This document shows, one piece after another, positions 4,934 to 54,904 of a stretch of 64,000 nt of DNA. Origin of the DNA: Escherichia coli (GTDB taxonomy: Bacteria; Bacillota_I; Bacilli_A; RFN20; CAG-826); assembly GCA_963630675.1 (NCBI GenBank), contig CAVGNR010000010.1:15685-79684 (forward strand), in the 5' to 3' direction. Both the position numbers and the translations under genes were made by a program. How positions within the stretch are numbered: position 1 is the stretch's first letter; each line of letters begins with the position of its first letter. A model generated the notes under the pieces. That model had not been told where the DNA came from. It saw only the letters and a list, made by a program, of their open reading frames with translations, and searched no databases.

Positions 4934-5027
4934 ATACAGGGGACTTCATTGCTTTCATTTGATATTTCTAACCCATGTTTAGAATAATCTTTCTTAAAAG
5001 AATCCCCTCTAATGAGATTATTTCTTT

Positions 5028-5153: not shown

Positions 5154-5202
5154 AGTCTAGATACTAGTATAAAATTTAACAGGAATAAAAAGGAGGTGCT
5201 TT

Positions 5203-6678
5203 ATGAAAATTAACGAGCTATTTCCAGAAATAGATAATGAAAATTATGGTGTAGAATTGAAGGCTCGCTTATTAACTGGTCTCGATAAGCAAGGCAACGA
5301 TAACGAATTGAAATGGCTGAAGGAAATTGTTGCTTTCGCTAACACTCAAGGAGGCACCTTATTTGTGGGCGTTAACGATAAAACCCATGAATTGGAACCG
5401 TTAGATCATTCTGGGATTGATGAAGCAGCAAGACTTCTCTATCAAAAAGTGGAAGAAAGAATAGAACCTGATATTTCCTTAAGAATCAAAGAAATAAGCT
5501 TAGGTAAGGCATATAAAGATCAATATATTCTTCGTATCGATGTTGAAAAATCAGAAAAAACCCCTGTCTATGTTCATGTAAATGGGATACCTGTGTGTTA
5601 TATTCGTCAATTCGGTAGAGCGAAAACGGCCACCCCTGAACAAATTGCTCAGCTTGTTGTGAAATCCACAAGGATTGCATACGATTCGGTTTTGACTGAT
5701 GAAATCTATAAGGAAAAAGACTATCAGAAGTTAATTGCTAAATATGAAGAAACGAATCCTGGAAAAAAACTAGATGATAAGACTTTGATTTCTTTCGGAT
5801 TTATGAATAATGAAAAGCGTCTCTTTAAAGGTGCCTTATTATTCAAAGATAATTGCGAAGATTTAATAACTCTTGCTAAATGCTCTGTCTATCCTGGTTT
5901 TGATAAAGGCGGGAATGTTGTTTCCGCCTCTCAATCATATCAGGGATGTCTTATATCGGTCATTTACGAAGTTGTTGACTTTGTTAAAAACCATTCCACG
6001 ATTGGCTATAAAAAAACAAATGATTCGAGGATTGATCTCTCTTCTTATCCAGAAAGAGCGTTGTTTGAAGGGGTGGTTAACGCATTCGCTCATCGAAATT
6101 ATTTTATTTTTGGTTCAGAGATACAGTTTGATATTTTTAAAGACCGCCTAGAAATCACTTCGCCAGGATCGTTACTTGGTGGAAAGAACTTAGAACAAGA
6201 AAAACAAATTAGCCAAATTATGCCAAAAAGAAGAAATGAGCTTATTTGCAAAATACTGGAGTCTTTGCACATGATGGAAGCCAAAGGGACGGGCTTTGAT
6301 AAAATCGTTGAAGATTATCGTCAAGCTAAAGAATCTCAAAAACCATTTGTTAGTTGCAACGATGATTATTTTACTTTGACATTACCTGATTTGACCTTCC
6401 AAAAAGGGGTACTTGGTGAAGGCAATCCTTATCCTGAAATCCATCTTTTAAGGGAAATTGCCTCTTCCTACGATGAGAGAATTCTTTCTTGCTGTTACTT
6501 AAAGGAAAGAGCGATCACTGAAATTGCCTCTTTTTTACAAATATCTTCCTCTTCTCATCTTAGAAACGATATTCTCGAAAAACTAGTTGAAGAAGGATAT
6601 CTTTTTAAAACACAAAAAGGAAAAACGTTCTTTTATCTAACCAATAGGGCGAAGCTCGAAAAAGAAAATGCCATCTAG
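5203..6678 (+). CDS. Schlafen/AlbA_2-domain putative DNA-binding regulator (COG2865-like, C-terminal wHTH)
   Basis: RBS AAGGAGG upstream. N-terminal ELKWLKEIVAFANTQGGTLFVGVND is typical of AlbA_2. The central NAFAHRNY...ITSPG region and the C-terminal winged-helix-like tail fit this family. Confidence 0.7.
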   Translation: MKINELFPEIDNENYGVELKARLLTGLDKQGNDNELKWLKEIVAFANTQGGTLFVGVNDKTHELEPLDHSGIDEAARLLYQKVEERIEPDISLRIKEISLGKAYKDQYILRIDVEKSEKTPVYVHVNGIPVCYIRQFGRAKTATPEQIAQLVVKSTRIAYDSVLTDEIYKEKDYQKLIAKYEETNPGKKLDDKTLISFGFMNNEKRLFKGALLFKDNCEDLITLAKCSVYPGFDKGGNVVSASQSYQGCLISVIYEVVDFVKNHSTIGYKKTNDSRIDLSSYPERALFEGVVNAFAHRNYFIFGSEIQFDIFKDRLEITSPGSLLGGKNLEQEKQISQIMPKRRNELICKILESLHMMEAKGTGFDKIVEDYRQAKESQKPFVSCNDDYFTLTLPDLTFQKGVLGEGNPYPEIHLLREIASSYDERILSCCYLKERAITEIASFLQISSSSHLRNDILEKLVEEGYLFKTQKGKTFFYLTNRAKLEKENAI

Positions 6679-6777
6679 AACATCTAGAAATTATCTAGAA
6701 ACATCTAGAAATGTTTTAGACGTAAAATATTAAAATAGGCTATTTATCGAAAGAAAAATCTAGAAACATCTAGAAAT
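6673..6777. repeat. right copy of the long direct repeat flanking the AlbA_2 gene
   Basis: 105 bp, 104/105 identical to the left copy apart from the 21-bp unit it lacks. It starts at the penultimate codon of the gene (ATC TAG). Confidence 0.9.
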
Positions 6778-6847
6778 TCAAAAAACATAACCAATGTTAA
6801 AACCCATTCATTTTCTAAATGGTTCTGATGGTTTTTCTTTTTGAATA

Positions 6848-9569: not shown

Positions 9570-9616
9570 AGTAAAAAGCCACGAAAGCAAAAAATATCGT
9601 TTCGTGGCTTTTTACT
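9570..9616. promoter_or_regulatory. perfect 17-bp-arm palindrome (AGTAAAAAGCCACGAAA / TTTCGTGGCTTTTTACT) between divergent feoA and the AAA ATPase gene
   Basis: Read directly. It has an A-run on the left and a T-run on the right, so it could act as a bidirectional terminator or an operator. A degenerate second copy lies at 9740-9775. Confidence 0.6.
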
Positions 9617-9739
9617 ATATGACTGTTCAAAAAGAACATCTTATTTCTAAAATGAAGAGAAATATGCATAAATACTAATTATCTTCTTATTTAATTGACG
9701 AAATGAATTGTAAAAAGGATAATATTTAAGAAAGGTCTT

Positions 9740-9775
9740 AGCCACGAAACGATATTTTTTAATCTCATGGCTTTT
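9740..9775. promoter_or_regulatory. degenerate second copy of the GCCACGAAA palindrome, immediately upstream of the ATPase start codon
   Basis: AGCCACGAAACGATATTTTTT matches one reading of the 9570-9616 hairpin. The distal arm has decayed to TCTCATGGC. Confidence 0.5.
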
Positions 9776-9783
9776 AATGATTT

Positions 9784-11208
9784 ATGATTGGCAGAAAAAA
9801 AGAAACACAAGAATTAGAAAGACTGTACAATTCAAAACAAGCTGAGCTGGTGGCCGTCTATGGTCGAAGAAGGGTTGGTAAAACCTATTTAGTTAACCAA
9901 TTATTTTCCGATAAATTTCTTTTTAAACATGCTGGTTTAGCTCCTGATGACAACGAAAATTCAATAAAAGAAATGAATCGCCAGTTAAATCAGTTTTATT
10001 TGAATCTCTTAAGCTATGGCCTTAAGGAACGCAATGAACCCAAAAACTGGTTTGAAGCTTTCTTTCTTTTGCGCAAATTAATTGAGGAAAGAGACGATGG
10101 TTCACGAATTGTTATTTTTATAGACGAACTTCCTTGGATGGATTCAAAAGGTTCCGACTTTATCAAGGCTTTTGAAGGCTTTTGGAATTCTTTTGGTTGC
10201 GCAAAAGACAATTTGATGATGATTATTTGCGGTAGTGCAACTTCCTGGATGGAAAACAACTTAATTAATAATCATGGCGGTTTGTATGGGCGCGTTACTT
10301 ATGAAATCAAACTGGCTCCGTTTACTCTTTTTGAGTGTGAAGAATTTTTCAAAAACAAGAATGTTAGCCTCTCTAGATACGAAGTCACCCTTGCCTATAT
10401 GGTTTTTGGCGGTATTCCATATTATTTAAATTACATTGAGAGCCAATATTCGCTTTCGCAAAATATTGACAACCTCTTTTTTAAGAAAACAGCCAAATTA
10501 AAATTAGAATTTGATAGGCTGTTCCGATCCATCTTTGTTTATAGTGAAAAAGCAAAAGACATTGTTAAGCTTTTATATACGAATCGCTTGGGATATACGA
10601 GAAAAGAAATATCATCAAAAACGAAAATTTCCGAAGGTGGTACGTTAACGAATTATTTAAACGGTTTGATTGCAAGCAACTTTATTATCAAATACGTTCC
10701 TTTTGGGCGTAGTAAAAAAGAAGCTTATTACAAATTGGTGGACCCTTTTTGTCTCTTTTATCTTAGCTTTTGCCAGTCTGAAGTAGAAAACGAAAACTTT
10801 TTCAGCCAAAATATCTCCAATTACAAATTGAGTATTTGGTCTGGTTTTTCGTTTGAAAATGTATGTTTTAATCATATTGATCAAATTAAATTTGCTCTTG
10901 GCATATCAGGGGTAAACTCTTCTTCTAGCGCCTATTATTCCAAAGAGGATGAAATGCAAATTGACATGATTTTGTCTCGAAAGGATAACGTCATTAACAT
11001 TTGTGAAATGAAGTTCTATTCTGATGCGTTTAAATTGGATAAAGATAATTATTTAAAGATAAATCGAAGGATGAATTCCATCGCGGGGAAGGTATCTAAA
11101 AAAGCTTCCATAAGAAACGTCTTAATTACCACTTACGGATTATATAAAAACGAATATTCTTCTGTATTTGCAAATGTTATAAACCTAGATGATTTGTTCC
11201 GATTTTGA
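9784..11208 (+). CDS. AAA+ ATPase, archaeal-ATPase/DUF234 type with a C-terminal nuclease-like domain
   Basis: Walker A GRRRVGKT, Walker B IFIDELPW, C-terminal QIDMIL...ICEMKF (PD-(D/E)xK-like). Confidence 0.8.
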   Translation: MIGRKKETQELERLYNSKQAELVAVYGRRRVGKTYLVNQLFSDKFLFKHAGLAPDDNENSIKEMNRQLNQFYLNLLSYGLKERNEPKNWFEAFFLLRKLIEERDDGSRIVIFIDELPWMDSKGSDFIKAFEGFWNSFGCAKDNLMMIICGSATSWMENNLINNHGGLYGRVTYEIKLAPFTLFECEEFFKNKNVSLSRYEVTLAYMVFGGIPYYLNYIESQYSLSQNIDNLFFKKTAKLKLEFDRLFRSIFVYSEKAKDIVKLLYTNRLGYTRKEISSKTKISEGGTLTNYLNGLIASNFIIKYVPFGRSKKEAYYKLVDPFCLFYLSFCQSEVENENFFSQNISNYKLSIWSGFSFENVCFNHIDQIKFALGISGVNSSSSAYYSKEDEMQIDMILSRKDNVINICEMKFYSDAFKLDKDNYLKINRRMNSIAGKVSKKASIRNVLITTYGLYKNEYSSVFANVINLDDLFRF

Positions 11209-11429
11209 TTTTTTCAATTTATAGTCATCGCTTAAAAAAGTGACGCATTAAGAACGTCATTGTTTTTCATTTTCAACAAAAATGCTTCGATAATAAGGTT
11301 TTGTTTAAACACTAGGGAATCTGTTTAAATCATTTTTTCTCTGCCTTTATTACTATTAATTCGATGAAAAAGGAAAACTCATCCGGATAAAAAGAGCAAA
11401 AGAGCAATCAATCGTAAAGGAGAAAGAAT

Positions 11430-12029
11430 ATGGCAGATTTACAGGCGATTTTTGATAAGTGCAAGTTGGCGTATAAAGTAACTTGCGCGGACATTAGTGT
11501 GATGGGGAAGTGGCTTAGCGAACGTTTAGACAACGGGAAAAAGGAAAGATTTAATTCGGAGCTTCTTTGTAAGAACTTTGATATTGTTCTTCAATTCTCT
11601 TTGTTACAAATTGCGGTTGCAGATAATGATTTAGACTCAAAAGAAGTGGTTTTCATTCGGGATTTAACAATAAATGGCGATTTTATTGAGTATCTTAATT
11701 CTCTTGTCGAAAACAAAATTGACTGGGAGACACTCTATAGTGCAGATGTTTTCGAATTGAAGGGATTACTTAAAGATATTGAACCGCTCATGGAAAGTTT
11801 GAGTAACGATCTCGCTGCCGCTTTTGCTATTTGTGATGTAAGTACCATCTATAATTGTGTATCTGATTTGAAAACGTCGATTATGACCATCATCAATGGG
11901 TTAGGCAAAATGGATGGTGATTTCTCTTATTTAGAACAACATGCCGATTGCCTTATTGTTCGTGTGATTTCAGAAATTGAAAACAAAAAAGAAAAGCTGA
12001 AAATACAATTCCCGGAAGATTTTAATTAA
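11430..12029 (+). CDS. hypothetical cytoplasmic protein (weak TerB-like signature)
   Basis: 199-aa ORF with RBS AAGGAGAAAG upstream. IAVADNDLDSKEVVFIRDL resembles a TerB-type motif. No firm assignment. Confidence 0.35.
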   Translation: MADLQAIFDKCKLAYKVTCADISVMGKWLSERLDNGKKERFNSELLCKNFDIVLQFSLLQIAVADNDLDSKEVVFIRDLTINGDFIEYLNSLVENKIDWETLYSADVFELKGLLKDIEPLMESLSNDLAAAFAICDVSTIYNCVSDLKTSIMTIINGLGKMDGDFSYLEQHADCLIVRVISEIENKKEKLKIQFPEDFN

Positions 12030-12175
12030 GGAAAAGTTTTATGGATAAAGCAACATTACAACAACTTAGTTATGCGATTGCGTTTTTAACTTCCTGGATA
12101 AATAAAGGTCCTGGAGTTTGAAGTGAGACCCAAATGTTGGATTTGCTTCTAATATCCCAGTTGAACAAAGGGCTT

Positions 12176-13528
12176 TTAATCGTTTATCGGCACAAAAGTT
12201 TTCATCATTCTTTTTAACAAAAATGTGCAGAAATATGGAAAAGTGTATATATGTTCGTTGTAACCGACATTATTTGTTGATAATTTGAAACCGTATGCAA
12301 TGTCCGGATATTCGTTAGAAGAGATCAATGTTCTTAAAGACTTTGAATGGCCGCCTTTTGCTTTCACTTCGATAGGTATCAGATTATTTGCCGTACGAAT
12401 GAAGAAGTCTTCTTCTAATGTTCCATTGTCTTTTTTGTAGTAGTAGAGCTTGTAACCGGATTTAACTAATGCTTCAGCGACGATGTTTTCATAAAGCGCA
12501 CCTTTATAAACACCAAGATTTTTATTTGCTCGCAAATCTTCTTGCGATTCTTCATCTAAGAGCGAAACAAGCAAACCCGTATCAGAGAAATACAACTTAT
12601 ATTTGTCAATATCGCAATTCCCTGAGAGGGGCAATTCCGCCACATTCAAACAATAACACGCGTTGATGACTCCTACGTCTACAAGCCATTCGGTGCAACC
12701 ACGATAATCACGGAATTTCGCATTTTTTTCGACTTTCGAAATCTGGAATTTTTTGTTTTCCTTCGCTAATTGAGACGGAACGCTATTGAAAACGTTTAAT
12801 ATTCTTGTTTGATCAATCCCCTCTGCATATTTCTTTATGTCTTCTTTATAGTCGGCTATAAGCTGATGTTGGGTATCGAGAGAGCCTTCAAAAGTCCCTT
12901 TCTCTATATATTCTTTTATAACTGCAGGCATTCCGCCAAGAATCACGTAGTCTAGGAAAATCCCATGAAATAGGGACATTTCAAGTTCACTAAAAGGAGT
13001 AAGTGTTTTCATGTGCGAAAGAATATCTTCTATGGTTGCTTCGCTATAACCTTTCGCCCATAGAAATTCTTCGAAATCCATTGAATACATCTCGTAGTCA
13101 GTCTTATATCCAACGCTGTTACTTTCAATCTTTTTGTAATTTATTCCAAGCATAGAGCCGCTGCAAATAACGTCAAAACGCCCATCTTCCTTAAAGAACT
13201 TCAAAGAAGTTGCAATATCGGGAAAATCGCTTATTTCATCAAAAAATATTAATGTTTTCCCAGGTATAAAGGATTTAGAAGGGTCCAGCAATGAAATATT
13301 TTTTATGATTGCTGAAGCACTATACCCATCTAAGGTTATTTTTTTATACTTTTCGTCTTTTACGAAATTGATTTCAATGACACTTTGGTAACCTGCCACT
13401 TTGGCAAAATGCCTAATGGATTCGGTTTTACCTACTTGTCGGCATCCCTTTACTATTAAAGGCTTTTTGTCTTTGTCTTCCTTCCATTTTAAAAGAAAGT
13501 CATCTATCTTACGTTTTAAATAGGTCAT
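12176..13528 (-). CDS. AAA+ ATPase with DUF4143-type C-terminal nuclease-like domain (COG1373 family)
   Basis: Walker A GCRQVGKT, Walker B IFFDEI, C-terminal EEDFFI...IPIEVKAKG. Confidence 0.85.
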   Translation of the reverse strand: MTYLKRKIDDFLLKWKEDKDKKPLIVKGCRQVGKTESIRHFAKVAGYQSVIEINFVKDEKYKKITLDGYSASAIIKNISLLDPSKSFIPGKTLIFFDEISDFPDIATSLKFFKEDGRFDVICSGSMLGINYKKIESNSVGYKTDYEMYSMDFEEFLWAKGYSEATIEDILSHMKTLTPFSELEMSLFHGIFLDYVILGGMPAVIKEYIEKGTFEGSLDTQHQLIADYKEDIKKYAEGIDQTRILNVFNSVPSQLAKENKKFQISKVEKNAKFRDYRGCTEWLVDVGVINACYCLNVAELPLSGNCDIDKYKLYFSDTGLLVSLLDEESQEDLRANKNLGVYKGALYENIVAEALVKSGYKLYYYKKDNGTLEEDFFIRTANNLIPIEVKAKGGHSKSLRTLISSNEYPDIAYGFKLSTNNVGYNEHIYTFPYFCTFLLKRMMKTFVPIND

Positions 13529-13600
13529 TTCTATAAAAACCTCCGAAAAATTCTAAAAATATTATGCTAAGTTTGTAGATAAAAATCAATGTCGCTCACA

Positions 13601-13648
13601 TTTTCGTAGCGAAAAATATTAATGTTAAACACCTTTTCGTAGCGAAAA
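13601..13648. promoter_or_regulatory. two copies of the palindromic word TTTTCGTAGCGAAAA, 33 bp apart, upstream of the 12176-13528 ATPase
   Basis: Exact copies at 13601-13615 and 13634-13648. They lie just upstream of a TTGATT-17-CATAAT promoter-like element on the minus strand. Confidence 0.55.
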
Positions 13649-13914
13649 TAATGCACTCTACACACATTTTATGAGGGAAAAGATGTGTTCAACTGTTTTA
13701 ACCGCCAAGTTTATTGCACTTCATGAGTGAGTTTGGAATTACAAATCGAATTCGATAAGTTTGCGAAGGCTTTATGTTTTGATACTGGAACTCCTTAAAA
13801 ATGTTGTGACAATTTTGGGAATTTCTTAAAAAATTGCTACATTCATGGGAAATCGTCTAAATGCTAACTGAAAGCCTTATGAGACTTATTATGAAATAAA
13901 ATGTCCATCAAGAA

Positions 13915-14958
13915 TCAGTCTTTCTGTTGCTCTTCCATGCCCGCTGAAGCAGTCTTTTGTTCTTCAACAAACTTCTCAGCTTGTTTCTTTGTTTGCTCAG
14001 GAACGTGATATTCTTTCTTTTCCTTTTCTTCTACGACAAGACGTTCATAATCGAAATCGATGCCGTTTTTCAAGAAAATCTGATGGTATTCTCTTAAGAT
14101 ATCTCTTTGCACTTGGAAACGATCCTCTTCTTTGCATTTAGCAAGGAGCTTTAATGCCACATTGCTTTCTTTGTATTCGGAAACGCCTTTGTAGAAAGGC
14201 CCTTCAATGATTTCAGGGATCTTTTCCTTCATGGCAGGAAGGTTCTCTTTCAATATTTTCTCTACCAATTCGATAGGGACATCATAGCTGACTTCACAAT
14301 CTACGACTGCTAAGGATAATTCACGAGAAAGATTAACGACATTCTTAATGTCAGAATTGTTGATGATTTTGATATTTCCAGCAGCATCCGTAATTTTTGT
14401 GGCGCGGATACCAATTTCCGTCACGGTTCCTCTAAAACCATCGATGGATACAATCTCACCGACGTTGTATTCGTTTTCAAAGATGATGAAAACGCCAGCG
14501 ATAATATCAGCGATAAGGGATTGGGCTCCAAGACCTATGATCAGGGTAATAACACCAACGGATTCCCAAATAGCTCTTGTATTCACGCCGAAAGCATTCA
14601 AGATAAGGAAGAAGAGGGCAATTGCACTTCCGTATTTGATAAGGCCATCTAATAGAGTGATAACGGTCTTAGCACGATCAGAGCGTTGCATGATGTTTTT
14701 AAAAATCATTCGAATTAGCTTAGATAAAGCGATAACGATAACAATTAAGATCAAGCAATGGATGAAGACCTTGTAGTTTTCTTGTAACATCCCTGGGATT
14801 GCGCTTAGATCTATGACGTTTTCTTTTGACCAAGGGACGAAACCGTTCTCTGGTGGCAGAGCCAATTGCAAAATGCAAATCAAAACAAATAGAAGCAAGA
14901 TTGCACTTAGCAATATCGTCGAGATCCATTTCGACACCTTTCTCTTTTTCTTTTCCAT
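13915..14958 (-). CDS. small-conductance mechanosensitive channel (MscS family)
   Basis: TM helices followed by GAQSLIADIIAGVFIIFENEYNVGEIVSIDGFRGTVTEIGIRATKI, the MscS pore and beta-domain signature. Confidence 0.9.
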   Translation of the reverse strand: MEKKKRKVSKWISTILLSAILLLFVLICILQLALPPENGFVPWSKENVIDLSAIPGMLQENYKVFIHCLILIVIVIALSKLIRMIFKNIMQRSDRAKTVITLLDGLIKYGSAIALFFLILNAFGVNTRAIWESVGVITLIIGLGAQSLIADIIAGVFIIFENEYNVGEIVSIDGFRGTVTEIGIRATKITDAAGNIKIINNSDIKNVVNLSRELSLAVVDCEVSYDVPIELVEKILKENLPAMKEKIPEIIEGPFYKGVSEYKESNVALKLLAKCKEEDRFQVQRDILREYHQIFLKNGIDFDYERLVVEEKEKKEYHVPEQTKKQAEKFVEEQKTASAGMEEQQKD

Positions 14959-14970
14959 ATCATTTACCTC

Positions 14971-17130
14971 CTATGCATTGATATTGAAATTGTATGTTTT
15001 ATATCGATTACCCTTCATCTCACACTCGGTTGAATAGGACGCATAATTGCCATCATATAAAGTCATACTCAACGTCATCTGTTTTCCTAGGACGTTTCCA
15101 GGAACAAGAGACATATAGGAACCAGCATGTTCTACGTACTCATTAAAGTAATAATAAATTCCATCAATCAAAAGCTCGTTCTTGATGAAATAGTTTGAAT
15201 CGTTATAGACGATAATCTTAGTGGAATTACTTGTTTCATCGTAACTTGCCTCATAACGAATGGGTTCATTCTCTTTTAGCCTTAAAGAACCCGAAGGCAT
15301 CTCTTTACTCATCTGATAGGTGATTCCGTCCTTTTCGTAATTTATAAAATATATTGGGCGATAATCAAGGGCTGGCAAATCCTCCATAATGGAATAGGTA
15401 CCTGTCGTTTTGCTATGTATGGCGTTTATATATTTCATTTCGCCAGTGGTGGTATCTTCAGTGGCTCCTTCATATAGCATCGTGTCTAAATAAATATTTG
15501 GATTAGAAGAAGAGAAACCGACTTTTCGGTAAACGTTAACCGTATCATCATCGTTATAGGTGACGACAAAGTCATTCGGATTGACATAATCAGAGATTGT
15601 CGGTTCAACATAAGTACTACGGATTTCACTTGCACCAAGGATTGTATAATCTGACACTTTCTTCCATTCGTTTCCATCCGGAGAGAGGATAGCAAGGGAA
15701 AGAGTATCCCCATCGGCAGATGGTACCTTCTTTAGATAATAAGAGTCCGTTAATGCGAATTTTTCATCGATTGTTCGATCTTGGTTATAAATTGCAATGG
15801 AATAATCATTTGGAAGAAGATAATCGAATTCAAAACTCAAAGGAATGTAATCAGTTCCTGCCTCTGTCAAATCTGCACGTAACGATGTGACATTGAGGTA
15901 ATATTGCAAATTGTAGGTGTTCTCAATAATAGGCACTTTATGTGTATAACTATCTAAACTCTTGTTTTGGAACTCTAATTCACCAGATAAAACAAGGTTT
16001 CCGATTTCACCTTCATACTCGTCTAAGACAATTGTTCCGGCTTTCTCTAAGTTTTGAATTGTTTTCTTTTTCCTTCCTGCCCCATTATCTAAAGTGAGAT
16101 ATAAGCAAAAAGAAGAAAACTCATAAATGGTGTCAAAAGAATAGGACAAAGTGAAATTTTGACCATCAAAACCAAATGTATTGTCAAAAGAAAGACGAGG
16201 AAGAGAGACTACGCTATAATCGGATGCCATATATTGCTCAGAAACAATCTCTTCATAGGCAAAATAAGAAATATCTTTATAAGTTAAGAAGAGATTCTGA
16301 CCGTATGGGACATGCAATTTCACTAAAGGGTCCGTTCCTTTATAGCTATCTAACACTTCGCCTTCTCTTGTAACAGCGGAAACCTCATATTGGAAAACAT
16401 CTGGATAAGGACTTTGGTACCCCGTATTAATTTCGACTTCATACATATCCGTTTCGGCAAATGTTATCTTTGTTTCTGTTGGTTTTAGTTTCTGATAGTT
16501 CCCTTGGTAACTTTGATCAAGATTAAACGGGATCAAAGAAGAGGAATAAATGACGTTTTCTTTTTCCTCCTCCGAATAGGAAAGAAGAGCATAGCGATAG
16601 GATTCAAGACCATAGATTGTTTCCACATCAAAAGAAAAATGCGTATCGGTAAAGATTAAATCCGTATAGTATTCTTCTTTTCTCTCGTTCTTTCCGTATT
16701 CTTCCACCAATGCGCAATAACGGGAAGCCTCATTGCCAATCTCCATTTCTCCTTCGATAGAAATCTGATGAAAAGAAGTCTTATCGACCAAAGAGTCTGT
16801 AATTAAAGTTCCAAACGGACTTTTCTCTTTAATTACTTCAGGTACAAATCCAAGGACGGTAGCGGAAACAACGGCAACTGCAGTCGTGGTAACAACCGTT
16901 GAAGTATGGGAAACAATCTTATCTTTTAGTTTATCGAACTTGCTAAGCCCCTCTTTTTCTTCTTTCTTAGGAGGCTCTTCCCCTAAAGAGATTTCTTTTA
17001 CGTCAAAATCCTCTTTAGCTTCGTTTTTTAACTCTAGCGTTTTGTAATCTTCCGCAGGAAAAAGGGAATACTCTTCACATGCATTCTCTTCGTTGCCCGA
17101 AAAGATTTCAGAATCCCCTTCGCTTTTCAT
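14971..17130 (-). CDS. hypothetical single-pass membrane protein with a large extracytoplasmic domain
   Basis: 719-aa ORF: acidic N-terminal region, one TM (VVTTTAVAVVSATVLGFV), then about 620 aa rich in Y/S/T/N. No recognisable motif. Confidence 0.5.
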   Translation of the reverse strand: MKSEGDSEIFSGNEENACEEYSLFPAEDYKTLELKNEAKEDFDVKEISLGEEPPKKEEKEGLSKFDKLKDKIVSHTSTVVTTTAVAVVSATVLGFVPEVIKEKSPFGTLITDSLVDKTSFHQISIEGEMEIGNEASRYCALVEEYGKNERKEEYYTDLIFTDTHFSFDVETIYGLESYRYALLSYSEEEKENVIYSSSLIPFNLDQSYQGNYQKLKPTETKITFAETDMYEVEINTGYQSPYPDVFQYEVSAVTREGEVLDSYKGTDPLVKLHVPYGQNLFLTYKDISYFAYEEIVSEQYMASDYSVVSLPRLSFDNTFGFDGQNFTLSYSFDTIYEFSSFCLYLTLDNGAGRKKKTIQNLEKAGTIVLDEYEGEIGNLVLSGELEFQNKSLDSYTHKVPIIENTYNLQYYLNVTSLRADLTEAGTDYIPLSFEFDYLLPNDYSIAIYNQDRTIDEKFALTDSYYLKKVPSADGDTLSLAILSPDGNEWKKVSDYTILGASEIRSTYVEPTISDYVNPNDFVVTYNDDDTVNVYRKVGFSSSNPNIYLDTMLYEGATEDTTTGEMKYINAIHSKTTGTYSIMEDLPALDYRPIYFINYEKDGITYQMSKEMPSGSLRLKENEPIRYEASYDETSNSTKIIVYNDSNYFIKNELLIDGIYYYFNEYVEHAGSYMSLVPGNVLGKQMTLSMTLYDGNYASYSTECEMKGNRYKTYNFNINA

Positions 17131-17243
17131 GTCCTCTTCACTTTATCGAAAAAGGAAGGGATATTCAAAACAAAATATTTGTTTCCTATGAAAAAATGAG
17201 GTCTTCTCCTTTACTACATCATTTCATAGTGAAGTAGAATTTT

Positions 17244-17322
17244 TTGGAAAAGTCCGTTTTTAGACGTCATAATTGTTTGGAAAAGTCCCAAAAACGATAT
17301 AAAAATATATTGGAAAAGTCCC
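17244..17322. promoter_or_regulatory. three copies of the word TTGGAAAAGTCC at exact 33-bp spacing, overlapping the promoter of the 17354 ATPase
   Basis: Copies start at 17244, 17277 and 17310. The last supplies a -35-like TTGGAA, 16 nt before TATAAT (17332-17337). Confidence 0.6.
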
Positions 17323-17353
17323 AAAACGTTTTATAATTCTTTTAAGAAATGTT

Positions 17354-18664
17354 ATGTTTTATAGGAAAATTGAAGAAAGAATAAACGATTATTACTTAGA
17401 TAAGGGTGCCAAAATCCTCGTTATCGATGGAGCGAGACAAATAGGGAAGAGTTTTATTATTAGGGAGACTGGTAAAAGGTTCTTTAAGCATTTCATTGAA
17501 ATAAATCTTAAGGATGATTGGGAAGGAAACAGGTTCTTTGAAAATGTTCGCACAATCGAAGATTTTTACTTGCAGGTTAGTGCTCTTTACGGAAATGATT
17601 TAGGTAATGTTTCCGATACGATGATCTTTTTGGACGAAATACAATCTTATCCTCATTTGCTAACGATGTTAAAGCCGTTAAAGGCTGATGCTAGGTATCG
17701 CTATATCTGTAGTGGTTCTCTTTTAGGGATCACCCTTCAACATACTTTTATTCCAATGGGCAGCATCGACGAAGTGAAAATGTTTCCCATGGATTTTGAG
17801 GAGTTTCTTTTGGCAAGTAACGTTGGGAAGGACGTCATTTCTTATTTAAGAAATTGTTTTGTAAAGCGAACTCCACCCACAGAGGGAATCCATAAAACGA
17901 TACTGGGGCTATTTAAGCGTTATTTGCTTTCTGGCGGTCTTCCTGATTCTGTAAAAGCCTTCGTGGAAGCAAAGAACGTTTATGAGATGAGAGAAAATCA
18001 AACCCTCACCTATAAATATTATTCTGATGATGCAGCAAAATACGACAAGGAACATTCATTAAAAATAAGACGTATCTACGATTATTTGTCTTCCTATATG
18101 GAAAATAAAGTCAAACGTATCCAATTTAATAAGATCGAAGGAACGTCTAAAGCTTCGATGGGTCGTTATCAGGATGAATTTGATTACTTAATCTCTTCTG
18201 GTTGCGTTTTAGATGCTAAAGCCGTTAGTAATCCGGTATTTCCTCTTTGCCAATCAACAAGTAAAAATCTAATAAAACTCTATTATAACGACGTTGGATT
18301 ACTTACTAATATTTTGTATAAGAACAATATCGATGCCCTTTTAAATAAAGACCGTGGAGTTAATTTAGGTAGCGTGTATGAAACGGTTTGTGCGATGGAA
18401 TTATCTGCCCATGGGCATGAATTGTACTATTTTGATAGCAAAAAAGTCGGGGAAGTGGACTTTTTGCTCAATGATTACGAAAACACGTCTATCCTTCCTA
18501 TCGAAATAAAATCGGGGAACGATCAAAATAATTTTAGGGCTATACCCAAGCTCGTAAAAGAGCCTTACAACCTACGGCAAGGCTACATTTTCGGGAATGA
18601 AAACATCATTGAAGAGAAATCGAATTTGATTACTTTTCCAATATACATGATTATGTTCGTTTGA
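17354..18664 (+). CDS. AAA+ ATPase with DUF4143-type C-terminal domain
   Basis: Walker A GARQIGKS, Walker B IFLDEIQ, C-terminal EVDFLL...LPIEIKSGN. Confidence 0.85.
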   Translation: MFYRKIEERINDYYLDKGAKILVIDGARQIGKSFIIRETGKRFFKHFIEINLKDDWEGNRFFENVRTIEDFYLQVSALYGNDLGNVSDTMIFLDEIQSYPHLLTMLKPLKADARYRYICSGSLLGITLQHTFIPMGSIDEVKMFPMDFEEFLLASNVGKDVISYLRNCFVKRTPPTEGIHKTILGLFKRYLLSGGLPDSVKAFVEAKNVYEMRENQTLTYKYYSDDAAKYDKEHSLKIRRIYDYLSSYMENKVKRIQFNKIEGTSKASMGRYQDEFDYLISSGCVLDAKAVSNPVFPLCQSTSKNLIKLYYNDVGLLTNILYKNNIDALLNKDRGVNLGSVYETVCAMELSAHGHELYYFDSKKVGEVDFLLNDYENTSILPIEIKSGNDQNNFRAIPKLVKEPYNLRQGYIFGNENIIEEKSNLITFPIYMIMFV

Positions 18665-18714
18665 GATTTTATTCTTTTCTTACTTATGACTATTTGATGT
18701 GTACGAATCATTAA

Positions 18715-19092
18715 TCAAAGCATGGACTTAACCCAAGAAAGAAAACTAGGATAGTCTATTTTTCCAGATGCTAGGGAGAGGAACTCTTTAATCACTTCCT
18801 CATTTGTTGCTTTTAGTGATATGCCATTGGCATCAAGACTTAAGTCTAGCACTTTTGCGGTGATTCTTTTGTTTCCGTCTACGAAAGGATGATCCATAAC
18901 CAAACCGAATGAAAGCCGGGCTATCTTATCGATTATCGTGGGATAGAGGTCTTGCGAATCAAAGGTTTGAAGAGGGGTGTTTATAGCTGAATCTAACATG
19001 GCCTCATCACGGATTCCGTCACCGCCACCGTAATTGCTGATCAACTCCGAATGAAGGAAAATAATATCTTCTTTCGAAAGGAAGAAACTCAT
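18715..19092 (-). CDS. doc: Doc (death-on-curing) family Fic-fold toxin
   Basis: HPFVDGNKRI motif, 125 aa, 4-nt overlap with the upstream antitoxin gene. Confidence 0.85.
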   Translation of the reverse strand: MSFFLSKEDIIFLHSELISNYGGGDGIRDEAMLDSAINTPLQTFDSQDLYPTIIDKIARLSFGLVMDHPFVDGNKRITAKVLDLSLDANGISLKATNEEVIKEFLSLASGKIDYPSFLSWVKSML

Positions 19093-19343
19093 TTTGCTAA
19101 CTCCTCGTATGCTTTGTGATATTTCTTGTCAGATTTCTTCGAGAGTTCTATAAGCATTTTTCTGTCCATGTATTGGATTTCGGTGTTCTTGGTAATCTTA
19201 AAAGGTATACTTTGTTCTCTAAGAGCTTGTTTGGCAAACATATTGAAGGCTGCATTCATCGTGAGACCAAATTCCGAGAAGAGCTTCTCTACCTGCGCCT
19301 TATCATTGGCGTCCATTCTAATTGTTACATTTACACTTGCCAT
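19089..19343 (-). CDS. RelB/DinJ-type ribbon-helix-helix antitoxin
   Basis: Start at MASVNVTIRMD with RBS GGAG upstream. VNVTIRMDANDKAQVEKLFSEFGLTMNAAFNMFAKQALREQSIPF is the DinJ/RelB pattern. Confidence 0.75.
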   Translation of the reverse strand: MASVNVTIRMDANDKAQVEKLFSEFGLTMNAAFNMFAKQALREQSIPFKITKNTEIQYMDRKMLIELSKKSDKKYHKAYEELAK

Positions 19344-19582
19344 AGGTAATATCTCCTTTTTCTGGATACATTTTAGCACTTGATTGGAAAAGAACAAATA
19401 AAAAAGAAGTGCAATATACGTGCAAAACAAATACATTTGCTCAAAAAGTGTAGCGCCGGAACAACAAACGTCACCACTTTCCTTGTTATAAAAACAGCGA
19501 TTAAAACACTAGCCGACCAGTGTTTTCATCGGAAAATATATAAAAAGCTTACCAACGGATAATTGTGGTGGGAGGCTAATAA

Positions 19583-19822
19583 ATGTATTTAAAACGAGAT
19601 ATCGATCAAAGAGAAATCAATCTTCTTTATGTGGATAGGAATGCCATCTATCCTATCGAAGTCAAAAAAGGCGAAGCACCAAATAAACGGACAAAGAACT
19701 TTAACGTTCTGTCGAAATACCATATGGAGATAAAACCAGGACTGGTGGTGGATTGTTGCGATAAAATGCGTCCAATTAACGAAAAAGCCTATACTTTCCC
19801 CGTTTATTTGTTAGGAGCATAA
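19583..19822 (+). pseudogene. C-terminal remnant of a DUF4143-type ATPase
   Basis: Only the nuclease-like tail survives (EINLLYVDRNAIYPIEVKKGE...YTFPVYLL). There is no AAA domain upstream. Confidence 0.7.
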
Positions 19823-19972
19823 ACATGAAATGAGCTAAGTGGTCTTAAACGACATCGCTCTTTTGAAATGGAGAATAGAGATTTTTGGTGGTTCATCTCC
19901 TTTGTTGATGAATGTCATGTGACTATGTGTCACGTTGTCCATAGGAGAAAAATTTATTTACTTGCTTGAATG

Positions 19973-20002
19973 TCCTAACTAAAATTTTTGCAAGTTCTTG
20001 CA
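19973..20002. repeat. 30-bp direct repeat (TCCTAACTAAAATTTTTGCAAGTTCTTGCA), downstream copy
   Basis: 29/30 identical to 21301-21330. It contains the palindromic word TGCAAG-TT-CTTGCA. Confidence 0.85.
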
Positions 20003-20042
20003 CATTTAAAATTTAGAAATCGATAAGATTATGAGCGAATTT

Positions 20043-21293
20043 CTAGGATTTTATGGAATCTGGATCGATAAGGAATTCCTTCAAACCTAGGAAGAGAGTT
20101 CCCTTATCGTCTTTCCATTTCTTGATGTTATTTCTTACGACGATGATCTTTTTGAAACTGTCGTTGATGTGTAGCAATGATTTTTCTTCCTGCTCTCTTT
20201 TTCCTTTTTCGTCGATAGTAAGTGCAGATTGTATGTAATATCTTTCATATCCGAGATTACAAACAAAATCGACTTCCAGGTTCTTTCTTACATAGTTGTT
20301 GTTCTCATTCTTTTCGCCGATTGTTACAACGCCGACGTCTACTTTATATCCACGGATTATTAGTTCGTTGAAGATAATGTTTTCCATGATGTGATTTTCT
20401 TCTTGCTGCCTAAATCCCAGCCTTGCGTTTCTTAGCCCGATATCGGTGAAATAATATTTTAAGGGAGTGTCTATATATTTCTTTCCTTTGACGTCGTACC
20501 GATACGCTTTCTGTAGCAAAAAAGAGTCGACGCAACAATCCAAATACTGTTTTATCGTGTTGGGCGCCACATCGATGTTTTTAATGGATTTGAATGAATT
20601 TGATAGCTTGTTTGGATTCGTCAATGACCCGACGCTTGAAGAGACGATGTTCAAAACATCTTCTAGAACTTCGGTGTTCCTGATGTTGTTACGATTGACG
20701 ATGTCTTTAATATAGGTCTCAGTGAATAGATTTTCTAAATAATTGATCTTTTGTTCGTCACTCTTGCAGGTTAAAAGGTAAGGCAACCCCCCAAACATAG
20801 AATATTCATTCCACGCGTCATCAAAATCCATTTTGCAATAATCGAAATATTCTTTGAAAGACAGTGGTGATAGGTAGATTTGATCACCTCTTCCTCTAAA
20901 TTCCGTGATAATGTCTGAAGAAAGGAATTTTGCGTTGCTTCCTGTCACATACACATCGACATTTTTAATGTGGAGGAAAGAATTCAGGACGCTTTCAAAG
21001 TCGTGAACAAACTGTACCTCGTCTAAAAGAATATAGTATTTACCATTGTCAATAATTTGATTACGGACGTATTCATATAAATAATCCGGATTTTGGAATT
21101 TGATGTTTGATCTGTCGTCTAACTGTAAGGCGATTATATGGGATTTATCGACGTCGTTTTCTAGTAGATAGTTATAGAATATTTCGAATAAAAGGTATGA
21201 TTTACCGCATCTTCTGATACCAGTGATTACTTTTATCATCCCGTTGCCCATTCGGTCGATGAGCTTTTTTAGATAATCATTTCTTTTAATCAT
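20043..21293 (-). CDS. AAA+ ATPase with DUF4143-type C-terminal domain
   Basis: Walker A GIRRCGKS, Walker B ILLDEVQ, C-terminal EVDFVC. Confidence 0.85.
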   Translation of the reverse strand: MIKRNDYLKKLIDRMGNGMIKVITGIRRCGKSYLLFEIFYNYLLENDVDKSHIIALQLDDRSNIKFQNPDYLYEYVRNQIIDNGKYYILLDEVQFVHDFESVLNSFLHIKNVDVYVTGSNAKFLSSDIITEFRGRGDQIYLSPLSFKEYFDYCKMDFDDAWNEYSMFGGLPYLLTCKSDEQKINYLENLFTETYIKDIVNRNNIRNTEVLEDVLNIVSSSVGSLTNPNKLSNSFKSIKNIDVAPNTIKQYLDCCVDSFLLQKAYRYDVKGKKYIDTPLKYYFTDIGLRNARLGFRQQEENHIMENIIFNELIIRGYKVDVGVVTIGEKNENNNYVRKNLEVDFVCNLGYERYYIQSALTIDEKGKREQEEKSLLHINDSFKKIIVVRNNIKKWKDDKGTLFLGLKEFLIDPDSIKS

Positions 21294-21300
21294 GGCCTTC

Positions 21301-21330
21301 TCCTAACTAAAATCTTTGCAAGTTCTTGCA
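21301..21330. repeat. 30-bp direct repeat, upstream copy abutting the RBS of the 20043-21293 ATPase
   Basis: TCCTAACTAAAATCTTTGCAAGTTCTTGCA. The TCCT end is part of the minus-strand AGGAGAAGG RBS. Confidence 0.85.
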
Positions 21331-21379
21331 TAAATATTATACAGCATGACGTTGACAGTAACGATTAATAAATAAAATT

Positions 21380-21395
21380 TTTGCAAGTTCTTGCA
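21380..21395. promoter_or_regulatory. third copy of the word TTTGCAAGTTCTTGCA
   Basis: Exact 16-mer, 65 bp from the copy at 21315-21330. Confidence 0.55.
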
Positions 21396-21617
21396 TTTTT
21401 TTAACCAAAAAGCCGTCTAATCCAAAGAACGCCGCAAAAAACTGTTTTGAAAGTGCCTAAATCTTCGATTGACCTTGGATTTCTTATTTACTAGATTTGG
21501 TTTGAGGACGATGTTCTTGTTCAAGGGCGTTATAACCGCCATACAAAGCATGATTCCTTGTTGATTTGAAAAAAACAACGCTCTTGCGGAAATATGTCTT
21601 GAAATGGTACGCAAAAC

Positions 21618-21711
21618 TGTTCATTTGTAGTGAACAATATTGCTAAATAGTGAAAAAGTGTTCAGTAGTAGTGAACAATAATGTTGTATAGAGACAAAGT
21701 GTTCAGTAAAA
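21618..21711. repeat. three GTTCA-N7-TGAAC-type words at 41-bp spacing with no intact gene attached
   Basis: TGTTCATTTGTAGTGAACAATA (21618), TGTTCAGTAGTAGTGAACAATA (21659), TGTTCAGTAAAA (21700). The first overlaps the ATG of a 46-aa minus-strand ORF (21484-21624). Confidence 0.6.
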
Positions 21712-22003
21712 TTTTGACTTTGCTAAGCCGAAGGTTCGTTCATGAAATGCTTTGTTCCATTTCGATAGCAAAAACATCTTGCTTAATATCTTACTTAAAA
21801 AAGAAGCTAAATCGTTGATAGATTTACAAGTCTTTTATCATCGCCTTTATGAACAAACTGTGTCTGCTAGGTAAATCTTTATTCTCCAAACAAAGGGCTA
21901 TGAGAGCCAGTTCTAGCTAATGTCAGGATAAGCTCGCCATTCACAGCTCTTAAAAATGAGAAACCAATCCCACTTTCTAAGCATCACACACATAAAAATG
22001 GTA

Positions 22004-22054
22004 CTCTCTTACAAAAACTCGCTCATTTTTTAGTAATTATTGATTAAAACTCGC
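22004..22054. repeat. two copies of AAAACTCGCTCATTTTTTA, 32 bp apart, with no intact gene attached
   Basis: Exact 19-mers at 22004 and 22036. The reverse complement reads AAAAATGAGCGAGTTTT, which is a start codon followed by an early stop. Confidence 0.6.
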
Positions 22055-22211
22055 TCATTTTTTATACAAAGACTAGAGTTTATCTTTATAGTTTTTGCGG
22101 GCTTATCATTCGTTATGGTGGTGAGCAGCAAAATTATTTGGATGAAGTTAAAAAACGGCGTCGATATTAACAAAGACCATATTGGAATTGAATGCGAATT
22201 AAAAGGAACCG

Positions 22212-23501
22212 CTAGTCTTTTAGACAACCAATAGGAATGACAAAAACGCCATCCTCTCTTCGATAACCATATTCGGTTCCAGTGATGACAATCTTCAAAT
22301 CAGGGAGTCTCAATGGCATTTGTTTTTCTTTTTCGTTGTATTCTTTGATCAATCTTTCGATTTCACAGAGATGCTTTGCGCCTTCGTCGATTTCACTTGA
22401 ACCTAACTTGAATTCGAGCAAAGCATATCTTCCGTCTTTCAAATGCAACACGCCGTCAGCTTCTAATCCGTATCTGTCATGATAATAAGACATTTCCCCA
22501 CGCATCTTAGAAGAATATATTTTCAGATCTCTTATGCATAATGATTCAAATAGAAAACCGAGTGTTTTGAAATCGGTGTAAAAGTATTCAGGCGATATTC
22601 CAAGAGAAGCGACAGCGATTGATGGATCTATCAAATTTCTTTTTTTACCGGACCTTATCGCTGTTTTGGATCTGATTGCAGGACACCACGGATTGATATC
22701 TTCTATGATATAAAGTTTTTCTAATGCTTCAATGTAATTGCTGATGCTTTTATCGGACGTATCATTTGTTGATTTGACATCCTGATAGATAGTTTTATAG
22801 TCGCATAGTGTACAGATGTTTCTTGAATAGGATCTTAAAATCGCATTTGTCAACTTAGGGCTCCTATTTGCATCATCAATGGACGAGATATCTTTGTTGC
22901 AAATCTGGTATACCAAATCATCGGCAACATCTAATTTGTTGTTTTCATTTTTGATTTTAAAACAGGCTGGCCATCCGCCTCTACAGATTGCAAAGATAAG
23001 CTCTTTTATTGTCAAATTGGAAATACATCCCTTGAAAGAATTCGGATTATCAAATAATTCCATCAGTGAAACTGAACCGTTGGATTCTTCGGATTCATAT
23101 AAACTCAGAGGGTACATTTTCATTGTGCTGATACGCATCGTGCCGGTGTGAGAGACTTGGACATTCTTTGATGTTGAACCAGTCAGAATATATAAACCTG
23201 TTTTCTGCTCGTCATCAACTGACTTACGAATTGCACCCCATATTTTAGGAGCATCTTGCCACTCATCGAACAGCCGAGGTTTGTCGCCGATTAAAAGCAT
23301 GCTCGGTGCATCTTTTGCTGTGCTCAAATATTGGTCCCTTTTTTCTTCATCTTGAAATTCGATAACGCTTTTTGATTGCTGTTTTGCTGTTGTTGTTTTT
23401 CCACATCCCTTAGGGCCGATAATCAGTACTGCTCCGAATGCGTTCAATTTGTCTTTTAAAAGACTGTCCGCGATTCTTGCTTTATATTTCATATACCTCA
23501 C
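22212..23501 (-). CDS. AAA+ ATPase with DUF4143-type C-terminal domain
   Basis: Walker A GPKGCGKT, Walker B RLFDEWQ, C-terminal EADGVL...LLEFKLGS. Confidence 0.85.
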   Translation of the reverse strand: MRYMKYKARIADSLLKDKLNAFGAVLIIGPKGCGKTTTAKQQSKSVIEFQDEEKRDQYLSTAKDAPSMLLIGDKPRLFDEWQDAPKIWGAIRKSVDDEQKTGLYILTGSTSKNVQVSHTGTMRISTMKMYPLSLYESEESNGSVSLMELFDNPNSFKGCISNLTIKELIFAICRGGWPACFKIKNENNKLDVADDLVYQICNKDISSIDDANRSPKLTNAILRSYSRNICTLCDYKTIYQDVKSTNDTSDKSISNYIEALEKLYIIEDINPWCPAIRSKTAIRSGKKRNLIDPSIAVASLGISPEYFYTDFKTLGFLFESLCIRDLKIYSSKMRGEMSYYHDRYGLEADGVLHLKDGRYALLEFKLGSSEIDEGAKHLCEIERLIKEYNEKEKQMPLRLPDLKIVITGTEYGYRREDGVFVIPIGCLKD

Positions 23502-23532
23502 CTCGTTAATATTGTAGCAATTCTAGCTTCCA

Positions 23533-23594
23533 TTTCCAATATTTGTGGCATTTCATTTCCAATATTTGCGGTATCTTGTTTCCAACTTTTGTGG
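23533..23594. promoter_or_regulatory. three copies of the word TTTCCAAYWTTTGYGG at exact 23-bp spacing upstream of the 22212-23501 ATPase
   Basis: Copies start at 23533, 23556 and 23579. Confidence 0.55.
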
Positions 23595-24308: not shown

Positions 24309-25098
24309 CTATACTCGCTTTATTTCCACTGGTATTTCTTTATATTGTTCTTCATCTATCGCTTTCAGTATTCCGCATAAAGGGACGGGTTCATTCTTGT
24401 TTTTAATCATGGTGAGCCGGAACGGAAAATCTGGAGCTAATCCGCGACTGATTGAACGAAATAACCCATTATGAAACGAGCCGTCGTCTAACTCGATATT
24501 CTCCGCTTCGCCAGCCATCATCATGGAATCGCTTTTGCTTTTTACCGAAATTTCATTTAGTTTTTCATCCGTAAGAATTAGGAATCGTGTTATAGGTTCT
24601 AAATAAGTGATAGCTTTTATCTCTATTTCTGTATTTTTGCTTGAATATGTGATAATCGCACGAATGTTCTCGTATGTTTGAAAAGATGGGACAAAAGTAT
24701 TCTCACCTCTTATAACATCGATTATTTGTCTAATTCCGAATTCTAATCCTTTGCCGAAAATATCGATGTATAAATTTTGCATCAATAAATCGGGCATTAG
24801 GCAATCATCTAATTTGACTGGTACTAGTTTAATTTTGCTGTTAGTTGTTTTGTACAAAGCGTTCTGCCACTCAAGTTCTACCATTTTGCTTTGAAGACTG
24901 TTTTTCGAAACAAAAAAAGAAAAAGAAGTCACAGTCGAAAAGGCCTTTGTTCATTTTATCGATAATCCCCTCCCCAGGTTGTATCGACCAGGAATCATAA
25001 AAGACATTTTCTTTTCCGAAAACGTCTGCTAATCGTAATGCTATGGGCTCTACGACGATTTTGTCCTTGCAATTGTGGCTAATAAATATATGTGGCAT
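24309..25098 (-). pseudogene. Toll/interleukin-receptor (TIR) domain protein with an unassigned C-terminal domain, interrupted by a +1 slip in a T7 tract
   Basis: N-terminal ORF HIFISHNCKDK...SWSIQPGE...LFDCDFFFFF. The second frame continues VSKNSLQSKMVELEWQNA. Removing one A from the A7 run at 24912-24918 joins them into about 262 aa. Confidence 0.75.
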
Positions 25099-54853: not shown

Positions 54854-54904
54854 TTTCTATTTTTCGATTTTAAAAAATATCGATAAATGCTAACTTTTTA
54901 AAAA

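Follow-up and report, generated by a model that had tools for sequence, protein, structure and literature searches.

The PDC-S01 and PDC-S27 families belong to the candidate defence genes that are most abundant in prokaryotes; PDC-S01 ranks fourth in frequency among defence candidates across prokaryotes and first among single loci in rumen genomes, and most such candidates still await experimental validation (PMC12988326, PMC13356809). PDC-S01 corresponds to COG1373, and the function of its DUF4143 domain is listed as 'Unknown' (PMC3424549). The literature that we searched for the two families holds no mention of upstream arrays, cis elements, DNA specificity or autoregulation. Five intact ATPase genes of these families, here designated g1 to g5, and one internally deleted gene lie within 9.5–23.6 kb of the 64-kb stretch of contig CAVGNR010000010.1 (assembly GCA_963630675.1) analysed here, hereafter the window, in whose numbering its features are given. 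Each of the five carries in its upstream region a short word of its own (w1 to w5), repeated in phased arrays or as paired palindromes at the promoter-like site. Autogenous control by operator arrays is a known mechanism; what would be new is an effector ATPase-nuclease as the proposed regulator of its own gene, with a word code that is family-wide, clade-specific and fast-diversifying.

Several described systems resemble this arrangement in part. Orc1/Cdc6 on origin boxes (2qby) and DnaA on the boxes upstream of dnaA are alike in the succession of AAA+ domain, lid and winged helix (here from the g3 model and its Foldseek matches), in boxes beside the own gene and in an apparently bipartite word. 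Unlike them, the ATPases of the window lack sequence membership of those families, carry an extra C-terminal PD-(D/E)xK nuclease domain and have sites that overlap their own promoter, and a role as origins is implausible for five different arrays that stand within 14 kb of a chromosomal defence island. MalT-type factors form cooperative, nucleotide-controlled assemblies on promoter arrays of short, asymmetric direct repeats; the likeness lies in a STAND-like ATPase fold (MalT is the second structural match of g1) and, as a resemblance in mode of action only, in direct-repeat boxes at promoters. MalT, however, has a dedicated C-terminal LuxR-type helix-turn-helix (HTH) domain and activates other operons, whereas the ATPases of the window end in a nuclease domain and have the own promoter as their predicted target. 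The C proteins of restriction-modification systems and regulators of the BrxR/CapW type share operators on the own promoter, tight control of a potentially toxic defence gene and portability, but these are separate small regulators; none is encoded here, so the effector enzyme itself would regulate. Plasmid iterons with their Rep initiators also combine phased direct repeats beside the binder's gene, element-private specificity and an autorepressed gene; the protein fold here is different, there is no replicon context, and the period is 32–33 or 23 bp rather than ~22 bp.

Repeated words upstream of the ATPase genes

The clearest direct-repeat arrays precede g3, g5 and g2. Upstream of g3 (17354..18664, + strand), TTGGAAAAGTCC occurs three times at 33 bp (array 17244..17321, +; copies at 17244, 17277 and 17310), and the third copy forms the −35 of a promoter-like site, TTGGAA-16-TATAAT (17310..17337, +), as the original prediction had it, with a 10/12 match to consensus. 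The g5 array (23531..23594, −) comprises three units at 23 bp that read CCACAAAWRTTGGAAA on the gene strand, with w5 at 23533, 23556 and 23579; the −35 of its promoter-like site (23511..23539, −; TTGGAA-17-TACAAT with TG ahead, 9/12) lies inside the proximal word. The open reading frame of g5 (22212..23492, −) extends to 23501, and its start is most likely the ATG at 23492, preceded by GAGGTGAGG. For g2 (12176..13528, −) two copies had been reported; the array (13596..13677, −) in fact holds three units in 33-bp register, on the gene strand CTCATAAAATGTGT, CGCTACGAAAAGGTGT and CGCTACGAAAATGTGA, within which exact copies of w2 stand at 13601 and 13634, 33 bp apart. The adjoining promoter-like site, TTGATT-17-CATAAT (13561..13589, −), is a consensus match only, at 9/12. 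Tandem Repeats Finder (TRF) detects the period of 33 at 13581–13648 and that of 23 in the g5 array, and misses the g3 array.

In g4 and g1 the sites are operator-like palindromes that bracket the promoter. The proximal g4 site (21304..21335, −; w4 at 21315) lies between TATAAT and the ribosome-binding site of the gene (20043..21293, −), and the distal site (21369..21400, −; w4 at 21380) upstream of the −35 region, both being the palindrome TGCAAGAACTTGCA. Three w4 copies had been assigned to the 5' region; there are three, but one of them, at 19987, belongs to a 32-nt copy of the operator region 3' of the gene (19976..20007, −), in direct orientation, so that g4 is flanked by direct repeats 1328 bp apart. 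Upstream of g1 (9784..11208, +) the two predicted palindrome copies are present, each as a longer unit of 33 bp. The distal one (9577..9609) is AGCCACGAAA-N13-TTTCGTGGCT; the proximal one (9740..9772), between the −10 and the ATG, is imperfect, its right half being degenerate (TCTCATGGCT). GCCACGAAA is accordingly met at 9578 (+), 9600 (−) and 9741 (+), and between the two palindromes lies a promoter-like site, TTGACG-17-GATAAT (9695..9723, +), which is a consensus match only, at 10/12. An intrinsic terminator at 9574–9613 was considered and rejected: the terminator scan makes no call there, the loop is 13 nt, the site lies between divergent gene starts, and the element recurs in orthologues as a pair with changing half-sites.

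All of these words are exact and stand where the original account puts them, and each is confined to its own site in the window when both strands are searched with up to two mismatches. Exact 12-mer direct repeats are restricted, among the window's 21 intergenic gaps of at least 80 bp, to the four that lie upstream of the DUF4143 genes and the two that flank an AlbA_2 gene; a 12-mer inverted repeat occurs in the g1 upstream gap and likewise in one unrelated gap (54854–54965). The description of the words as mostly inverted repeats holds for w1, w2 and w4 only, w3 and w5 being plain direct repeats, and the palindromic look of TTTTCGTAGCGAAAA is lineage-specific, since the conserved core of the g2 clade is AAAATGTGA. 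Helical phasing, which had also been proposed, fits the 32–33-bp spacings, at about three turns, but not the 23-bp spacing, which is not an integral number of turns.

The layout recurs in ~130 relatives from other genomes, across bacterial phyla. A scan for relatives with one genome per species returned 80 loci, among them ~30 g3 orthologues at 52–89% identity and 47 g2 orthologues at 53–65% identity from Lachnospiraceae, other Clostridia and Bacteroidales, most of which have two to five direct repeats at 32–33 bp in an array that ends on the promoter. In upstream regions of up to 200 nt, with one mismatch allowed, at least three copies of a 10-mer were found for 49 of 79 family genes against 19 of 175 other genes (p=1e-16), and at least four copies for 25 of 79 against 1 of 175, several of the control 'positives' being the same intergenic region viewed from the divergent neighbour. 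A spacing of 32 or 33 bp accounts for 109 of 150 family spacings and for 13 of 134 in the controls. The orthologues stand in unrelated contexts, and homology to the window spans only the stretch from the first word to the stop codon; one g3 orthologue, 89% identical, has four copies of TTGGAAAAGT at 33 bp in a wholly different context, after a YoeB/Phd pair.

Each of the other clades has a layout of its own. Arrays of 23–24 bp precede g5 relatives in L018 (four copies) and in L009 and L026 (three each), and an eight-copy array is found in L087. The L087 sequence is an IMG/VR contig classed as viral, in which eight copies of the 23–24-bp unit AGAGAAATTGCCAAATGAAATTC (at ~1240–1430) lie ~95 bp upstream of the start of a g5 relative of 54% identity. 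The g4 relatives in L051, L055, L083, L085 and L086 have two sites, often palindromic, that bracket the promoter, the distal one upstream of the −35 and the proximal one after the −10. Four g1 orthologues at 64–84% identity (L088, L089, L091 and L092) have two copies of a palindromic unit of 33–41 nt, 73–165 bp apart, with a 10+13+10 palindrome at the place equivalent to the distal g1 site and a half-site that varies by lineage; in g1 relatives the proximal palindrome lies between the −10 and the ATG. One further relative (L090) has one clear palindrome (10+15+10) and a degenerate second copy, and another, at 57% identity (L093), a single, different palindrome. A search of viral contigs for g1 relatives found none. 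In L091 (1187–2989) the g1 orthologue and its two palindromes stand alone between rpmF, for ribosomal protein L32, and plsX, which looks like a single-gene insertion into a row of housekeeping genes.

The association also holds when the array is taken as the starting point. A metagenome scan for three copies of TTGGAAAA at 32–34 bp, made with no assumption about genes, gave 73 arrays with enough downstream sequence. For 34 of the 73, a family gene on the same strand follows at a distance of no more than 250 nt, many of these genes being only 33–40% identical to g3 (p=4e-58 against an assumed, generous baseline of 0.5%). Two more of the arrays precede a C-terminal gene remnant, and roughly 17–20 are unrelated satellites or coding repeats. 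In ~0.55 Mb of flanking sequence, locus-specific 13–14-mers are confined to the array and to the gene strand, with 2 exceptions among ~60 loci.

Word-only conservation and position on the promoter

Within the repeat unit, conservation is limited to the word. When the 33-nt units of 23 non-redundant g3-clade loci were aligned on TTGGAAAA, positions 9–13 showed an identity of 0.59–0.85 within a locus and of 0.26–0.33 between loci, and the remaining 14 positions, the spacer, were at background both within and between loci. The g2 clade has a constant ATGTGA core next to positions (−7 to −4) that are 0.56–0.89 identical within a locus and 0.32–0.39 between loci; its spacers, too, are at background. 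The conserved part of the unit is a word of 13–15 nt only. Because the spacers are unlike one another, as recent duplication would not leave them, the word appears to be bipartite, with a clade-fixed half and a lineage-variable half. The variable half changes together in all copies of a locus, which is the signature of a locus-specific reader.

These patterns bear on the view that the repeats are by-products of slippage or recombination that accompany the turnover of genes in a defence island, for instance junctions of cassettes or scars of duplication, with no sequence-specific reader. In its favour, direct repeats composed of the gene's own array flank g4 and likewise the AlbA_2 gene, relic arrays persist after gene loss, and the island differs between strains by deletions. 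Scars, however, would keep whole units alike, whereas here the words are near-identical and the spacers at background, to the point that TRF misses the g3 array; period, orientation and promoter position are moreover conserved at 30–60% protein identity across phyla, and flanking copies are exceptional, at 2 of ~60 loci. We regard such an origin of the repeats as very improbable.

Paralogues within a genome have different words. Two g3-clade paralogues on one contig (L005 and L006, UQCQ01000001.1) have TTGGAAAA in common and differ in the variable half, and the tandem paralogues in L017 and in L072 have unrelated words. The statement that no word is common to paralogues needs a narrower scope in one respect: the intermediate forms TTGGAAAAATGTA and CGGAAAAATGTGA connect the g2 and g3 words, which shows that both derive from one ancestral GGAAAA...TGTGA word and that the words are private within a genome, not family-wide.

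Either the sites bracket the promoter or they overlap its −35, extended −10 or +1 region, and these positions are of the repressor type. The −35 of the g3 clade (TTGGAA) comes from one of the words, and most orthologues of ~65% identity have a further copy between the −10 and the ribosome-binding site. Among g2 orthologues, those of Firmicutes have a proximal word that continues into the extended −10 (TGTGATATAAT), and in those of Bacteroidales the ATGTGA core stands ahead of TAnnTTTG. Since this core is kept in both groups despite their different promoter types, it is not a host promoter element.

An alternative is that the words are read by a host regulator or are stacked promoter elements, extra −35 or extended −10 sequences that recruit RNA polymerase. 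TTGGAA does resemble a −35 and TGTGA forms part of an extended −10, elements for which the proximal copy also serves, and orphan arrays occur ahead of unrelated genes. Against these points, the locus-specific half has no promoter role and is yet the same in every copy of a locus, no usable −10 accompanies the upstream copies, the ATGTGA core is kept in Bacteroidales with their different promoter type, and five different factors would be needed for one 14-kb stretch. This makes a foreign reader or a purely promoter-like role quite improbable. The upstream regions of the family genes contain no plausible regulator open reading frame (the g3 gap is only 223 bp).

Other candidates were examined as well. 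No Rfam match to a known structured RNA was obtained at the gathering threshold in 4500–25000, and most word copies lie upstream of the promoter. A CRP-type site was rejected for TGTGA, as the listed g2-clade units show, by inspection, no TCACA partner at N6. Ends of Tn7/Mu-type transposons were rejected likewise, the words being one-sided, 5' of the gene and on the gene strand in ~60 loci, and the extra g4 copy being direct.

Predicted fold and proposed autoregulation

The gene content on which the original prediction was built, five intact genes and a truncated one, was borne out by the open reading frames and by Pfam. In g2–g5, AAA_14 is matched at 2e-15 to 6e-33 and DUF4143 at 5e-17 to 5e-36, and full-length PADLOC models for PDC-S01 match g2 (2.7e-154), g3 (8.4e-150), g4 (1.6e-114, PDLC04787) and g5 (1.3e-51, PDLC04790). 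The first gene belongs to ATPase_2, a sister family of AAA_14+DUF4143 (Pfam 2.9e-20), and to PDC-S27 (full-length model PDLC04984, 5e-183); it has a winged helix and a PD-(D/E)xK-like tail that scores 4e-4 for DUF4143 and 2e-3 for DUF234, both under the Pfam cut-offs, so that this PDC-S27 member is an ATPase_2 protein with a sub-threshold DUF234-like tail. No NCBIfam model covers the ATPase proteins. Key residues are conserved: in g3 relatives the Walker A and B residues G31, K32, D94 and E95 of the AAA_14 P-loop domain are invariant, as are D369, E384 and K386 of the DUF4143 PD-(D/E)xK motif (27 relatives), and D394, E408 and K410 of g1 are invariant across 42 homologues, in a tail modelled as alpha/beta. 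Pairwise identity among the window paralogues is at most 28%, which marks them, on sequence grounds, as old. The sixth paralogue (19583..19822, +) is internally deleted, its start-codon region being fused to the last 78 residues, which are 85% identical to residues 339–416 of the intact L006 paralogue. Close relatives of the window genes come from uncultured gut 'Bacilli/Mollicutes' genomes.

Confident AlphaFold models of g3 (pLDDT 86.3, pTM 0.88) and g1 (pLDDT 89.7, pTM 0.89) are alike in their AAA+ domain, helical lid, canonical winged helix and alpha/beta PD-(D/E)xK domain, a putative one in g1, with an invariant D...ExK. In g3 these correspond to residues 1–155 (AAA+), 159–227 (helical lid), ~232–311 (winged helix) and 314–436 (PD-(D/E)xK). 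The top solved Foldseek match of g3 is Sulfolobus Orc1/Cdc6 on origin DNA (2qby_A, 6e-6, 367 columns), followed by ORC subunits, RuvB, RFC and MuB; that of g1 is the Pyrococcus ATPase 2qen (E 2.5e-12), followed by MalT, NLRs, Apaf-1 and ORC/Cdc6. A PDB sequence search of the ATPase proteins gave no match at E<=0.01, and the Pfam search no match of the window ATPases to a Cdc6/ORC family. The models place the fold between the DNA-binding initiators (ORC/Cdc6) and the STAND switches.

Taken together with the arrays, this architecture leads us to favour, with moderate confidence, a portable and insulated module in which each ATPase-nuclease binds its own array and represses its own promoter. The protein would bind two to five copies of its own 13–15-bp word over or beside the core promoter and would thereby repress transcription of its own gene, with DNA contacts through the winged helix, another surface or both, and probably in the form of an ATP-dependent oligomer. 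The gene, its promoter and the array would make up a single-gene module with regulation of its own, and it could for this reason move between genomes and sit beside paralogues without cross-talk. We infer the own product as binder, repression as the effect and the identity of the reading domain from the comparative pattern: the own product is the simplest trans factor because the arrays are inherited with the gene, lie on the promoter, are conserved in the word only and change in concert, because paralogues have distinct words, and because no other regulator is encoded.

Several observations weigh against this reading. The promoter calls are consensus matches, with no enrichment over shuffled sequences. 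The winged helix is modelled with good confidence, but in STAND ATPases this domain usually serves as a structural element of the nucleotide switch and reads no DNA, and the nuclease domain could therefore be the DNA reader instead. A screen for residues that covary with the word gave, in the g3 clade, a suggestive cluster at residues 263–268 and 273, just ahead of the putative recognition helix; the g2 clade yielded no such cluster, and phylogeny confounds the screen. About 15 g3-like metagenome arrays precede HU-like, integrase-like, ABC-transporter-like or S24-peptidase-like genes, and arrays can thus exist without a family gene in cis. Of the self-regulated, insulated modules that were originally proposed, comparative cis evidence supports the general outline, while the arrays also occur as orphans and relics and the winged HTH is one candidate for the reader.

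Arrays of TTGGAAAA(G/A)TGT lie before unrelated genes (translations judged by eye) in L097, L143, L154, L105/L149, L123 and L131, and could be relics or trans-regulated targets. In L110 and L156 a TTGGAAAAGTG array is followed by a gene for a 106-residue XRE-type HTH protein and then by a distant g1-like ATPase, a layout that may represent a variant in which a separate regulator exists.

The structural matches also raise the possibility that the array is a nucleation or parking site for head-to-tail assembly, like that of initiators on origin boxes, on which the enzyme is held inactive or licensed for immunity, autoregulation being a side effect. Such a role would suit the Orc1/Cdc6-like architecture, with Orc1/Cdc6 on origin DNA as the top structural match, and the strictly head-to-tail repeats at 32–33 bp, which with up to five copies (eight in L087) go beyond the needs of simple repression. 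The word is also bipartite, and Orc1 contacts its origin boxes in bipartite fashion. The proximal copy, however, always lies on a promoter element or the +1 region, as a repressor site needs, and the g4 and g1 clades use two promoter-bracketing sites, a classic layout for repression or looping. An assembly platform as the primary function is on this balance rather unlikely. A bolder combination, to which we likewise give only a small chance, is that the proteins of PDC-S01 and of PDC-S27 are sequence-programmable DNA readers of Orc1/Cdc6-STAND type that polymerise head-to-tail on phased copies of the bipartite word, one half of which would diversify fast, and that this recognition also serves immunity. 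The array would then be more than an operator, namely a resting-state sensor platform, and foreign DNA or a phage factor, for instance, could titrate or remodel the promoter-parked oligomer, inducing the gene and releasing active ATPase-nuclease.

Under the favoured reading, own-array repression by the ATPase-nuclease, the conserved, lineage-specific cis array is the first concrete molecular handle on the PDC-S01 family. The arrays predict sequence-specific DNA binding by the ATPase-nucleases, with a code that can be read and that evolves, and such a code would explain both how paralogues can stand side by side without cross-talk and how single genes move between phyla. The own words and those of neighbouring paralogues are ready probes for gel-shift, reporter and chromatin immunoprecipitation (ChIP) work, and annotation of the family and of its decayed remnants could use the arrays as a signature.

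Gene turnover, relic arrays and neighbouring genes

A sister strain (L214, in which g3 is 97% identical) shows how genes are lost from the island, its copy of which differs from that of the window by three indels. It is without the g1 coding sequence (window 9773–11133) and retains both g1 palindromes, the proximal one as AGCCACGAAA-N13-TTTCACGGCT. It is also without 13694–17214, which holds an MscS gene and a 719-residue open reading frame, so that there the g2 array lies back to back with the g3 array, at a distance of 48 bp. Lastly, it is without the 5' part of g5 together with the promoter and first word (22436–23555). Breakpoints at word edges in this strain could be taken to point to self-cleavage, but TTCC microhomology is present at the g5 junction, and no inference was drawn. 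The Doc gene of the sister strain has a small deletion.

The deletions leave operators behind, which indicates that relic arrays arise by gene loss. The 918-bp gap that separates g4 from g5 contains two gene-less tandem arrays: one at 21613–21708, with 2.3 copies of a 41-nt unit that contains TGTTCA..TGAACA, and, at 22014–22064, two copies of AAAACTCGCTCATTTTTTA 32 bp apart, which resemble the AAAACTCGCT words of the L017 and L022 paralogues. Both are probably relics of lost paralogues. Gene loss would most simply account for the 3' g4 word, for these two arrays and for at least some of the metagenomic orphans.

A comparable arrangement is found at a gene of a different family, a Schlafen AlbA_2 and HATPase_c_4 gene of 491 residues (5203–6678). 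Its upstream array, in 5026–5161, contains ATCTAGAAACATCTAGAAAT with a 21-bp period at 5034, 5055, 5076 and 5141. The array block of ~105 bp is repeated directly after the stop codon (6673–6779), leaving the gene flanked by its own array, and the duplication is also present in the sister strain.

Two large open reading frames of the window, of 719 residues (14971–17130) and 800 residues (2504–4906), are without a Pfam or PADLOC match. Among the ATPase genes and next to them are a Doc (Fic/DOC) and RelB pair at 18715–19436 and a TIR_2-domain gene at 24309–24932, neighbours that support the assignment of the region to a defence or toxin island.

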